Source: Prochlorococcus sp. AG-347-K18 (GTDB lineage Bacteria > Cyanobacteriota > Cyanobacteriia > PCC-6307 > Cyanobiaceae). Taken from it: a DNA stretch of 64,000 nt. Shown here piece by piece: positions 43,363 to 54,073 of the stretch. The stretch's first letter is position 1. Every line of letters starts with the position of its first letter. The DNA is taken from the NCBI GenBank assembly GCA_003281365.1, contig QCCF01000007.1, positions 12,598 through 76,597 of the forward strand, given 5' to 3'. Position numbers and translations under genes: made by a program. The notes under the pieces were generated by a model. It was not told where the DNA came from and did not search any database. It was given only the letters and a program-made list of their open reading frames with translations.

Positions 43363-43471
43363 TGGAGTGATTATTAATATATTCACTTTCTAATTTATTC
43401 AGTATTTATTGTTCGCAAAAATTAGTAATAATTGCTCTCGCGTTATTTATTTAGAGGAGTTAATATACACG

Positions 43472-43536
43472 AACGTTCATCCAAGTTTATATCTCTGGAC
43501 GCATGAAATGGGAATAGGGAACGGGATTCTCATTAC
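43472..43536 (+). promoter_or_regulatory. Glutamine riboswitch, Downstream-peptide class
   Basis: CGTTCATCC (43474) ... GGACGCA (43497) ... GGAACG (43518). P1 is CGTTC/GAACG; pseudoknot AATGGGAAT (43507-15) pairs with ATTCTCATT (43526-34). TAATAT -10 at 43461. Confidence 0.8.
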
Positions 43537-43548
43537 CTGCATAAGATT

Positions 43549-43719
43549 ATGAATAACCTCTTACAAATAAGAGAAAAAATCAAAAAAGCCAATAGGCTTT
43601 ATCAGGCTAAAATTTTGGCAACTAAAAACGGAGAAGTAACTCCATACAGACCTTCAGTTTTTGAAGAAAGAATCAAGCAAACTCAAAAAGAAATGAGTTC
43701 GACAAACACTAAAAATTAA
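43549..43719 (+). CDS. 56-aa basic peptide downstream of the riboswitch
   Basis: MNNLLQIREKIKKANRLYQAKILATKNGEVTPYRPSVFEERIKQTQKEMSSTNTKN; terminator hairpin at ~43746-43772. Confidence 0.7.
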   Translation: MNNLLQIREKIKKANRLYQAKILATKNGEVTPYRPSVFEERIKQTQKEMSSTNTKN

Positions 43720-51457: not shown

Positions 51458-51811
51458 ATGAGTAATTTTAAGTAGAATTTGTCCGCAAAAATTTAGTTAA
51501 TAAAAATCCTGATAGCATTTTATACGTAATATTGATCTATTTAAATCAATAAAAATTTAAAAACTGGAATATAGTCTTAAGAAATTATGAGCAAAAATCT
51601 TGGAATCCTTTAACTACTACGAATACTTAAATTCAATTTCATTTCACCCACCAGTGATGATAATTACCACATTAGTGTTCTTTTACATAAGAAGGAAATT
51701 TTTATTAGCAGGAAAAAAACATTAGCAATCTATTTAATAAATATTTTTAAACGAGTCATAAATTATATAAACAAAGCAGGTAATAAAAACAATTACATAT
51801 ATAGATTCCAT

Positions 51812-52294: not shown

Positions 52295-52400
52295 AAATAA
52301 TGTTAATAAGTGTTTTTATATAAATATAAGTTAATGATTTAATAAATTATTGATTTAAGAAGTGCAAAATAATTACCAGATTTATCATTACTTTATAAAA

Positions 52401-52697
52401 ATGGACTTCAGGATTTTACTTGTTATTACACCAATAATATTCTCATGGATATTTACAGTATTTTGGTTAGGTAGGTGGGATGTATTTAGATTGACACCAC
52501 TAGGATTACCAAAGAAGGGAATAGCTCCTTTTAAGAATTATCAAGTATGGGAAGATTCAGCATTAATTCCTGATACTGGCAGACCAGAAGAAGGTTATCC
52601 AGTATTTACTGTAAGAACCGCAGCAGTTAATGCTCTAGGGATTCCAACCGTTTTTTTTCTTGGAGCAATATTGGCAATGCAGTTTAAATCTTATTAA
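52401..52697 (+). CDS. PsbF-like (cytochrome b559 beta) paralogue with a PsbY-like N-terminal helix; heme His absent
   Basis: C-terminus [30 protein letters not shown]; N-terminus [13 protein letters not shown]. Confidence 0.8.
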
Positions 52698-52706
52698 TAG
52701 GAAATT

Positions 52707-52895
52707 TTGATGGACATTAGATTTTTAATTGTTGGAGCACCATTTTTAATCGCATTTTTTTATACTTTATTCTGGTTAAAAAAATGGGGCGCTTTTAATT
52801 CTACGAATAATAATTTATCAAAAAATATTTCTCTTAAAAATGAATCAATAGAACAAAATTATATTTTAGAGAATATCTTTTTAACAAAAAATTAA
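52707..52895 (+). CDS. PsbY-like single-TM protein
   Basis: MDIRFLIVGAPFLIAFFYTLFWL resembles the N-terminus of the upstream gene. Confidence 0.55.
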   Translation: MMDIRFLIVGAPFLIAFFYTLFWLKKWGAFNSTNNNLSKNISLKNESIEQNYILENIFLTKN

Positions 52896-53111
52896 TCAAA
52901 CTTTTCTTACCCCTGAATTAATACCTTGTCATGATTCCAATAGAACAGTATTTATTTTTTGCAGTTTCTCTTTATGCATTTTTTTACCTTTCAATAACTA
53001 TAGTAAGTACATTATTAAGATTTTCCTAAGTAATAACTCCATAAAATATTAAACACTTATTTGTATAAAATTAATCTTCCTGTATTTTAAAACTCATTAT
53101 ATAAATATAGA

Positions 53112-53230
53112 AGTAGATATTAGGGCAATCTACTAACCGCTAGCTTTGATAAAGCGGTTCGTAATGAGAACCTCCCTTTGACCTCATTTTCTTTTTCGCA
53201 ATCTTAGAAAATGAGGTTTAAATATTTTTT
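53112..53230 (+). ncRNA. Candidate three-hairpin sRNA, copy 1
   Basis: Stems AGTAGAT/ATCTACT, AACCGCT/AGCGGTT and 12-bp ACCTCATTTTCT/AGAAAATGAGGT. Confidence 0.55.
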
Positions 53231-53346
53231 AATAGTCATGAATATTAAATTAAATTCTTAATTAAAACTATTGATTATTAAATATTATTCCTTCTTATGT
53301 ATATTATTTACTTTTTAAAAAAGAGTTTTTTCTTTATAAAGAATAT

Positions 53347-53458
53347 GTAGATATTTGGCGAATCTGCAACGGTATAGATTCCGTCTTTATGAACCTAGCC
53401 AACGAAAATATTCCTAACTACCTTTTAGTTATTTTAGTAGTTAGGAATATTTTTATTT
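53347..53458 (+). ncRNA. Candidate three-hairpin sRNA, copy 2
   Basis: Stems GTAGAT/ATCTGC, ACGG/CCGT and 17-bp AAAATATTCCTAACTAC/GTAGTTAGGAATATTTT. Confidence 0.55.
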
Positions 53459-53493
53459 ATTACACCTTTTAATTAAATTTTTCTGGACATCAA

Positions 53494-53907
53494 ATGATCA
53501 ATAAATCAAGAAATGAATCTACATTAGAAGTAATTTATAAGAATTTGGAATCTGGAATGCCAGACAATAAATCGATCAAAGAATATGCTCTGCCTAATGC
53601 GAGACAGTGGCTTGGTGGAAGATTCGTTGCTATATGGGTTTTGCCCATTTATTTTTTAAGAAAAATTGCAAATTTTTCAGCTTCTTCCGCCTTTGTTAAG
53701 CCATATTCTTCTTCTGAAAAAGGACCATCTTATAAGCAACCAGAAACCCTATTTACCTCTTTAAGAAGTGTGTTCAGGGGTGAAGATCATTTAAGATTTT
53801 TTGATCATAGATTTATTGGTATTTGGGTTTTACCATTTGCCTTAACTGGGATAGTTTTTGAAATCCTACTTATAGCTCCTACTAATAACACTTCACCTTT
53901 CAGTTAA
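53494..53907 (+). CDS. Membrane protein with a duplicated RF(V/I)(A/G)IWVLP helix motif
   Basis: GGRFVAIWVLP and DHRFIGIWVLP. Confidence 0.7.
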   Translation: MINKSRNESTLEVIYKNLESGMPDNKSIKEYALPNARQWLGGRFVAIWVLPIYFLRKIANFSASSAFVKPYSSSEKGPSYKQPETLFTSLRSVFRGEDHLRFFDHRFIGIWVLPFALTGIVFEILLIAPTNNTSPFS

Positions 53908-54073
53908 GCATCTTTTTCTAATTTGTCCGCAATGATTGAGGACAGAATTTAAATAACATGAAAGACTTCTATTGAGTAATTTGAGAGACATTTGTGAGAG
54001 GAAACCAAACATCAAATTGATATCTTAACTGTTTAATACTGAGAAGTTAAATTATTCAGAACTAGCTCTCTTT

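Follow-up and report, generated by a model that had tools for sequence, protein, structure and literature searches.

Two tandem structured RNAs, hereafter RNA1 and RNA2, lie on the + strand at positions 53112-53458 of the 64,000-nucleotide stretch of Prochlorococcus sp. AG-347-K18 DNA analysed here (the window). An earlier note had described two tandem RNAs of shared layout at this site, and the features that it listed are present there. We hold with high confidence that both are real structured RNA genes on the + strand, and they probably represent an undescribed regulatory RNA family. The two copies are paralogues, and across the genus the second is bound to one downstream gene, which encodes a 137-aa protein. 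They sit in a run of small + strand genes comprising psbF-long, a 62-aa ORF, a 32-aa hydrophobic ORF, RNA1, RNA2 and the 137-aa ORF (Table 1), and the HLII/HLI-type loci that were first examined retain constant synteny from a divergent 121-aa gene through the 137-aa gene. The window belongs to a high-light Prochlorococcus, and all named relatives of the locus are Prochlorococcus. The orthologues collected (93 of RNA1 and 95 of RNA2, with ~16 more from a later batch) all derive from high-light Prochlorococcus, and the named carriers include MIT 9322, SB, MIT 9201, SS51 and MIT 9302. Further carriers are presumably MIT9312, AS9601 and MIT9515, and we take the non-carriers to include MED4 and MIT9301.

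Anatomy of RNA1 and RNA2

RNA1 and RNA2 share a layout in which a 6-bp hairpin (P1) with a 9-nt loop is followed, one to two bases on, by a GC hairpin (P2), a linker of exactly 20 nt, a long stem and a U-rich tail. The pattern of hairpin 1 matched only RNA1 and RNA2 in the 64 kb, against 0.18 matches expected by chance, and two or more matches occurred in 3 of 100 shuffles. Folding z-scores relative to shuffles were -3.1 for RNA1 and -4.6 for RNA2. Each unit closes with a predicted intrinsic terminator, the 13-bp and 17-bp stems and their U-rich tails being kept in 93 and 95 orthologues, respectively; a simple terminator scan omits both because their loops exceed the limit of the scanner. The terminal stems had previously been called unrelated in sequence and 12 and 17 bp long. 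The lengths stand, with one G.U pair added to the 12 of RNA1, but the loops that these stems enclose share UUUU.G..AU.UU when aligned through the models.

The linkers share an almost invariant motif, (U)GA(G/U)AAC(C), which in the modelled fold would be exposed between P2 and the pseudoknot described below. An ATG, by contrast, which the earlier note had included in the shared linker element, is not conserved, relatives having GAUAACC or GAGAACC at this place. The P2 loop of RNA1 (53144-53152) is itself conserved, as CUUUGAUAA[A/C], and is the same as the linker motif CUUUGAUAACC of divergent RNA2 copies (L290-L293); RNA1 therefore displays the motif twice, in its P2 loop and in its linker (AAUGAGAAC).

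Table 1. Features of the RNA array and of the adjoining genes, in window coordinates.
Feature	Position	Strand	Description
psbF-long (long-form cytochrome b559 beta, psbF-like)	52362-52697	+	NCBIfam match
62-aa ORF	52707-52895	+	Paralogue of psbF-long N-terminal half
RNA1 distal box TGTATAAAAT	53062..53071	+	Begins 51 nt before G of GTAGAT; invariant over 85 loci
RNA1 proximal box TATATAAATATA	53098..53109	+	TATAAA 53100-53105, read as candidate -10; invariant over 85 loci
RNA1	53112-~53225, U-rich tail to 53230	+	Folding, orthologues, covariance model
RNA1 P1 (hairpin 1)	GTAGAT 53113-53118 / ATCTAC 53128-53133; loop 53119-27	+	
RNA1 pseudoknot	53122-25 (AGGG) / 53174-77 (CCCU)	+	Candidate loop-linker pairing with compensatory changes
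RNA1 P2 (hairpin 2)	AACCGC 53135-53140 / GCGGTT 53154-53159	+	
RNA1 linker	53160-53179	+	Has ATGAGAACCT
RNA1 terminator stem	53180-53192 / 53206-53218	+	13 bp: 12 perfect and one G.U
Variable spacer between cassettes	53231..53297	.	Diversity 0.34; site of 1.3-kb insertion in two single-cell genomes
RNA2 distal box TGTATATTATTTACTTT	53298..53314	+	Begins 49 nt before G of GTAGAT; invariant over 85 loci
RNA2 proximal box TTTATAAAG	53333..53341	+	TATAAA 53335-53340, read as candidate -10; invariant over 85 loci
RNA2	53346-~53458, U-rich tail to 53462	+	Folding, orthologues, covariance model
RNA2 P1 (hairpin 1)	GTAGAT 53347-53352 / ATCTGC 53362-53367; loop 53353-61	+	
RNA2 pseudoknot	53355-59 (UUGGC) / 53398-402 (GCCAA)	+	Candidate loop-linker pairing with compensatory changes
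RNA2 P2 (hairpin 2)	ACGG 53369-53372 / CCGT 53381-53384	+	
RNA2 linker	53385-53404	+	Has ATGAACCT
RNA2 terminator stem	53405-53421 / 53437-53453	+	17 perfect pairs
137-aa gene	53494..53907	+	Two hydrophobic helices, internal repeat RF(V/I)xIWVLP; constant downstream partner of the array

Paralogy and family membership

Covariance models were built from the orthologues of RNA1 (R1) and of RNA2 (R2), and each recovered the other copy as its sole non-self match in the window, R1 finding RNA2 at 32.3 bits (E 6.7e-5) and R2 finding RNA1 at 36.1 bits (E 3.4e-5), against background matches of at most 15 bits. These reciprocal matches identify RNA1 and RNA2 as paralogues. Together with the conservation, strand-specific G.U changes and covariation presented below, they bear out the proposal, made in the earlier note, of duplicated structured RNAs. 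A gathering-threshold scan of the window with Rfam 15, including Yfr1, Yfr2, Yfr10, Yfr19, Glutamine-II and other cyanobacterial motifs, returned nothing at 53112-53458, and the identity with a described Yfr that had been considered was not found at the locus; the same scan detected Yfr10, Yfr19, IsrR and Glutamine-II elsewhere in the window. A permissive Rfam scan of 52800-53700 (E up to 10) gave only chance hairpin-type matches to miRNA models, and a literature search found no paper describing these RNAs.

Searches with R1 and R2 revealed no third paralogue in this genome or in the locus-free genomes, where the weak matches were plain terminators; in one genome of 1,657,990 bp, which we take to be MED4, they returned nothing but a spurious terminator (E 0.68). 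Phage records and viral contigs gave no match apart from a single 17-base match consistent with chance. A metagenome scan for variants at G13 of the RNA2 pseudoknot produced at least 120 matches, none of which, among those listed, had the screened RNA2 linker/terminator motifs, and these matches were treated as chance. A family-wide MAFFT alignment was not structurally consistent.

Conservation and covariation

Across 85 loci, nucleotide diversity was 0.058 in RNA1 and 0.074 in RNA2, compared with 0.34 in the spacer between them, 0.28 in the spacer from RNA2 to the ATG, and 0.14, 0.11 and 0.35 at codon positions 1, 2 and 3 of the 137-aa gene. By this measure both RNAs are more constrained than the second codon positions of neighbouring genes, and they are under purifying selection. 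Conservation spans the whole ~110 nt of each unit, loops included. In the orthologue alignments, 98.9% of the stem cells of RNA1 (93 orthologues) and 99.7% of those of RNA2 (95 orthologues) are paired. One-sided changes in the stems are transitions that give G.U on the + strand (and would give A.C on the other), which fixes the + strand for both RNAs.

In RNA1 and RNA2 alike, and in the same register, the P1 loop can pair with the 3' part of the linker. Complementarity of such length could by itself be chance, and the weight rests on how the two sides vary. At the middle G-C pair of the RNA1 pseudoknot (pair 13-66), distinct sequences comprise 46 GC, 4 GU and 10 AU, with A.C absent (0), and at pair 11-58 of RNA2 they comprise 54 UA and 3 CG (from 5 loci), with zero half-changed forms. 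Divergent homologues carry further matched variants, namely UGGGA:UCCCA, AGGGA:UCCCU, AGGGC:GCCCU, UUGGGC:GCCCGA and UGGGC:GCCCA. A crude test of cognate against non-cognate pairing gave 4.87 versus 4.02, a modest gap because the GGG:CCC core is common to the copies. We regard an H-type pseudoknot as well supported by this variation, though not proven.

A genus-wide search recovered divergent RNA2 homologues at 62-98 bits, and these bring covariation that is absent from the close set. In the divergent copies, ACGG:CCGU of P2 becomes ACCG:CGGU, one A-U pair of P1 becomes G-C, and CUAC:GUAG of the terminator becomes CUGC:GCAG. Among the divergent RNA2 homologues, both hairpins, the pseudoknot and the terminator thus all show compensatory changes. 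The earlier note mentions neither the pseudoknot nor the conserved upstream boxes, and it also lacks the additional copy of other lineages and the strict tie to the gene at 53494.

Conserved upstream boxes as candidate promoters

Two boxes precede each copy. The distal boxes of both read TGTATA(A/T)(A/T)AT, and the proximal TATAAA ends 6-7 nt before hairpin 1; more generally, every copy, whatever its lineage, has TATA(A/T)A(A/T) ending 6-8 nt before (A/U)GUAG. An identical distal box stands at an equal distance before RNA1 in the divergent lineage L290, where a similar box precedes the additional copy RNA0, and the distal box of RNA2 remains with RNA2 where an insertion splits the copies. In the AG-347-K18 genome, TGTATAWWATTWA occurs three times, two of these being the distal boxes. 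The 12-mer TATATAAATATA likewise has three occurrences in the 1.57-Mb genome, including 52318-52329, upstream of psbF-long, and 53098-53109, upstream of RNA1, a sharing that points to related promoters in the module. On the simplest reading, TATAAA is a -10 element and transcription starts where P1 begins, which would place the putative start sites at ~A53112 for RNA1 and ~53346-53347 for RNA2. The TGTATA box was also inspected as an NtcA site (GTA-N8-TAC) and rejected, since the spacing is wrong (N7) or the second half is missing.

Linkage to the 137-aa gene and variation among lineages

The 137-aa protein has no match in Pfam, NCBIfam, PADLOC or PDB, and as a two-helix membrane protein it resembles the cytochrome b559 subunits of photosystem II. 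Its linkage to the RNAs was surveyed in 93 genomes of the genus Prochlorococcus with a completeness of at least 90%. RNA2 was present in 60 of them (~64%), and the full-length 137-aa gene was found in exactly these 60; a further 31 genomes had neither, and two had remnants of the gene only. In all 60 genomes, RNA2 lies 25-90 nt upstream of the 137-aa gene on the same strand. The two remain neighbours where the upstream gene is a different one and where the locus is duplicated. RNA1 and RNA0 precede another RNA cassette and no coding gene.

Three divergent genomes have three tandem copies (RNA0, RNA1 and RNA2), each with a TATA box and a terminator. The gene upstream of the array in these genomes is a 59-aa ORF, and psbF-like genes were absent from the ~0.8 kb examined upstream of the first copy. 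In two single-cell genomes, AG-676-L21 (L034 1640-2940) and AG-670-O17 (L146), a 1.3-kb insertion separates RNA1 from RNA2 and leaves both cassettes intact, which argues that each cassette is an independent unit. The insertion carries a 195-aa gene of the Crp/Fnr family (weak PtrA/NtcA-like match) followed by a 111-aa ORF, and ahead of the 195-aa gene stands an inverted repeat, GATAATGAGAAT..ATTCTCATTATC, similar to a Fur box.

Duplication, decay and loss of the locus were also encountered. The complete 1.78-Mb genome G374 has two loci with RNA2 and the 137-aa gene (C1:1103691-1104250 and 1464959-1465524), of which at least the second also has RNA1 and psbF-like genes upstream. At the decayed locus of AG-436-E22 (L142 6850-7600), RNA1 is without hairpin 1, the P2 pair of RNA2 is broken and the RNA2 terminator has been lost through a deletion between two AAATATT repeats, and the 137-aa gene is intact. 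Genome G133, presumably MIT9301, has no RNAs and, at C1:1073989-1074146, keeps only a remnant of the 137-aa gene, which an in-frame TGA interrupts, so that the whole unit of RNAs and 137-aa gene appears to have been lost. Two low-light genomes, one of which we take to be SS120, have psbF-like genes and homologues of the 137-aa gene side by side, with the RNAs absent.

Proposed function and alternative explanations

The reading that we prefer, tentatively and with slightly more doubt than belief, is that these are stand-alone regulatory sRNAs tied to the gene at 53494, RNA2 possibly doubling as its leader. The array would then consist of paralogous small structured RNA genes of ~105-115 nt on the + strand, two here and three in some lineages, each forming a self-contained cassette with the TGTATA box ~50 nt upstream, TATAAA as its -10 element and a predicted start at the base of P1. 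The body of the cassette would comprise P1, P2, a 20-nt linker pairing through its 3' end with the P1 loop, and an intrinsic terminator, and the exposed (U)GA(G/U)AAC(C) may be the working site. Termination at their own terminators would yield sRNAs of the Yfr type, which may act in the same physiological context as the 137-aa membrane-protein gene, and read-through of the last terminator would make RNA2 also the leader of the mRNA of that gene. We infer the promoters, the start sites, termination and any regulatory action in this scheme.

The cassette form, the promoter boxes of each copy and the lack of a coding gene behind RNA1 and RNA0 argue that the RNA itself is the product, whereas a role in cis is favoured by the aptamer-like fold and by the fact that the last copy always adjoins one particular gene. 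Such adjacency exceeds the needs of a purely trans-acting RNA. Two structural features also count against stand-alone sRNAs: the pseudoknot takes up part of the C-rich linker, and the terminator loops of 13-15 nt are conserved in sequence, as a plain terminator would not need. Trans targets were sought in 1,726 crude start regions by duplex and contiguous-pairing scans, whose best matches did not exceed chance, and sequences complementary to the linker motif were not enriched near start codons. The best local target site, UUGGUUAGGU in psbF-long, is no more conserved than other synonymous positions, and pairing of the RNAs with the mRNA of the 137-aa gene gave no consistent site across four lineages.

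If the array instead acted in cis as the leader of the 137-aa gene, its pseudoknotted 5' domain would, in the manner of a riboswitch, sense a small molecule, protein or RNA and so control read-through of the terminator behind it, and the upstream copies would act as further checkpoints or as extra promoters feeding the mRNA. We consider this a possible but rather unlikely account. The joint occurrence of RNA2 and the gene in 60 of 60 genomes at 25-90 nt, despite other upstream genes, insertion and duplication, favours it, as does the resemblance of a compact pseudoknot with invariant junction nucleotides, and a terminator 2 nt on, to an aptamer with its expression platform. The spacer from terminator to ATG is unconserved and has no conserved promoter box, although in every lineage the AT-rich spacer could accommodate a -10 box, and a natural variant missing only the RNA2 terminator joins the 5' domain to an intact gene. 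In low-light relatives the gene occurs and the RNAs do not, which makes the RNAs look like an added layer of control. Invariant promoter boxes and a terminator for each copy, and the position of RNA1 and RNA0 ahead of no coding gene, speak against such a leader, as does the lack of any Rfam riboswitch match. Folding of the nascent transcripts found no terminator/antiterminator alternative common to the copies, with a weak AAUGAG:CUCAUU pairing in RNA1 and none in RNA2, and the alternative hairpin GGUUY:GAACC given by RNAalifold is specific to RNA1. The earlier suggestion that copy 2 is an attenuator-type leader of the 53494 gene thus holds as regards co-occurrence and adjacency, but a shared attenuation switch was not found. 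A bolder proposition, which we think unlikely, is that the pseudoknotted 5' domain represents a novel class of sensor, either riboswitch-like or protein-binding, which is present two or three times, each time with a promoter and terminator of its own, and gates expression of a cytochrome-b559-like membrane protein in high-light Prochlorococcus. If true, the array would control the gene through several RNA units and so differ from known tandem riboswitches, which to our knowledge share one promoter.

Partnership between the RNAs and the 137-aa protein itself, whether as a pair resembling type III toxin-antitoxin systems, with the terminator setting the ratio, or with the RNAs as an assembly or titration factor, would account for tandem pseudoknotted units directly upstream of one protein gene with a terminator between, for strict co-occurrence with gain or loss of the whole unit together, and for conservation of the whole RNA, loops included, as expected of protein contact. 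We nevertheless find it improbable, given that the units are ~110 nt long, diverged and separately promoted rather than short near-identical repeats behind one promoter, that the protein, with its two hydrophobic helices, matches no defence or toxin family, and that it is kept without the RNAs in low-light relatives. That the site holds DNA signals only (a terminator for the upstream operon, and promoters or operators of the 137-aa gene) is very improbable. The RNA1 terminator is indeed the first after psbF-long/orf62/orf32, and the conserved upstream boxes could be protein-binding sites, but conservation covers the whole ~110-nt units beyond boxes and terminators, and the stem changes are strand-specific G.U or compensatory, including those in the long-range loop-linker pairing. 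Small peptides are hardly credible as the product. An ATG occurs in each linker, and that of RNA2 opens a hydrophobic frame of 27 codons through the terminator, yet the RNA1 frame has just 5 codons, and coding potential was rejected because nearly all substitutions in the 27-aa frame of RNA2 are non-synonymous (N/K/E, E/K/G/A, P/L/S, Y/C, L/V/F) and its ATG is replaced by GAT or GAG in divergent copies.

Comparison with known systems and significance

The closest parallels are found among the Yfr sRNAs, including the multi-copy Yfr2-5 and Yfr11/Yfr16, that have been described in MED4 (PMC2518516, PMC6778093). Like these, RNA1 and RNA2 are Prochlorococcus RNAs of ~80-150 nt of a kind often located in variable genome regions, clade-specific and present as paralogous copies, and they combine a -10-only promoter (predicted here), a 5' stem-loop, a conserved unpaired motif and an intrinsic terminator. 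They differ in that no Rfam Yfr model matches them, in that the locus is absent from the genome we take to be MED4, the strain in which most Yfr were defined, and in having an obligate neighbour gene and a pseudoknot that covariation supports.

Tandem duplicated sRNA genes are known from PrrF1/PrrF2 of Pseudomonas aeruginosa and OmrA/OmrB of E. coli. As in these pairs, the present genes are adjacent paralogues, each with its own promoter and terminator, in which read-through can lengthen the transcript, and common 5' and core motifs are kept while the rest has diverged around a variable spacer. The sequences and organisms are unrelated, however, with no control of the Fur or OmpR type shown, and some lineages have three copies. 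PrrF has previously been cited in work on Prochlorococcus sRNAs (PMC2518516). The Glutamine-II or Downstream-peptide motif (RF01704) is similar in being a small pseudoknotted domain before a small gene, possibly in tandem, in the same organisms; our RNAs differ from it in that neither RF01704 nor any other riboswitch model matches them at E up to 10, in the predicted promoter of each copy and in the lack of a shared terminator/antiterminator switch. Type III toxin-antitoxin systems of the ToxIN type consist of short near-identical tandem repeats behind one promoter, with an endoribonuclease toxin. These share with our locus an array of pseudoknotted RNA, a terminator and the gene of a partner protein, inherited together, but the present units are three times longer, diverged, separately promoted, with detectable similarity confined to the 5' hairpin and core motif, and the partner is a two-helix membrane protein without a PADLOC match.

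High-light Prochlorococcus is the ocean's most abundant phototroph, and it has so few protein regulators that small RNAs carry much of its regulation. Nearly all known Prochlorococcus sRNAs were defined in MED4 and the low-light strains NATL2A and MIT9313, and since the locus is missing from the putative MED4 genome, screens against a MED4 reference would have missed RNA1 and RNA2. Previous sRNA screens have been based on the MED4 and NATL2A references (PMC2518516, PMC7368042) and could not detect a locus that those references lack. The alignments of RNA1 and RNA2 can serve as seed alignments for a new RNA family, and RNAs locked to an uncharacterised cytochrome b559-like gene offer an entry point to the control of an accessory photosynthetic module.

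Neighbouring genes and repeats

Further observations concern the surroundings of the array. The NCBIfam model for the long form of cytochrome b559 beta aligns to psbF-long from residue 14, so that its true start is probably ATG 52401 rather than GTG 52362, and the position of the heme-ligand His is occupied by Asn. The 62-aa ORF is ~40% identical to the N-terminal half of psbF-long over 40 residues and has a weak NCBIfam match. Elsewhere in the window, a 57-aa ORF (43548-43719) lies directly 3' of the Glutamine-II riboswitch (43471-43533), and 10 nt of its leader, UUCUCAUUAC, are perfectly complementary to the RNA1 linker, one among several matches at chance level. A direct repeat, AATTTGTCCGCAA, at 51476-51488 and 53920-53932 flanks the module; in contrast to this bracketed arrangement, the divergent lineages have the RNA array and the 137-aa gene without psbF-like genes upstream.
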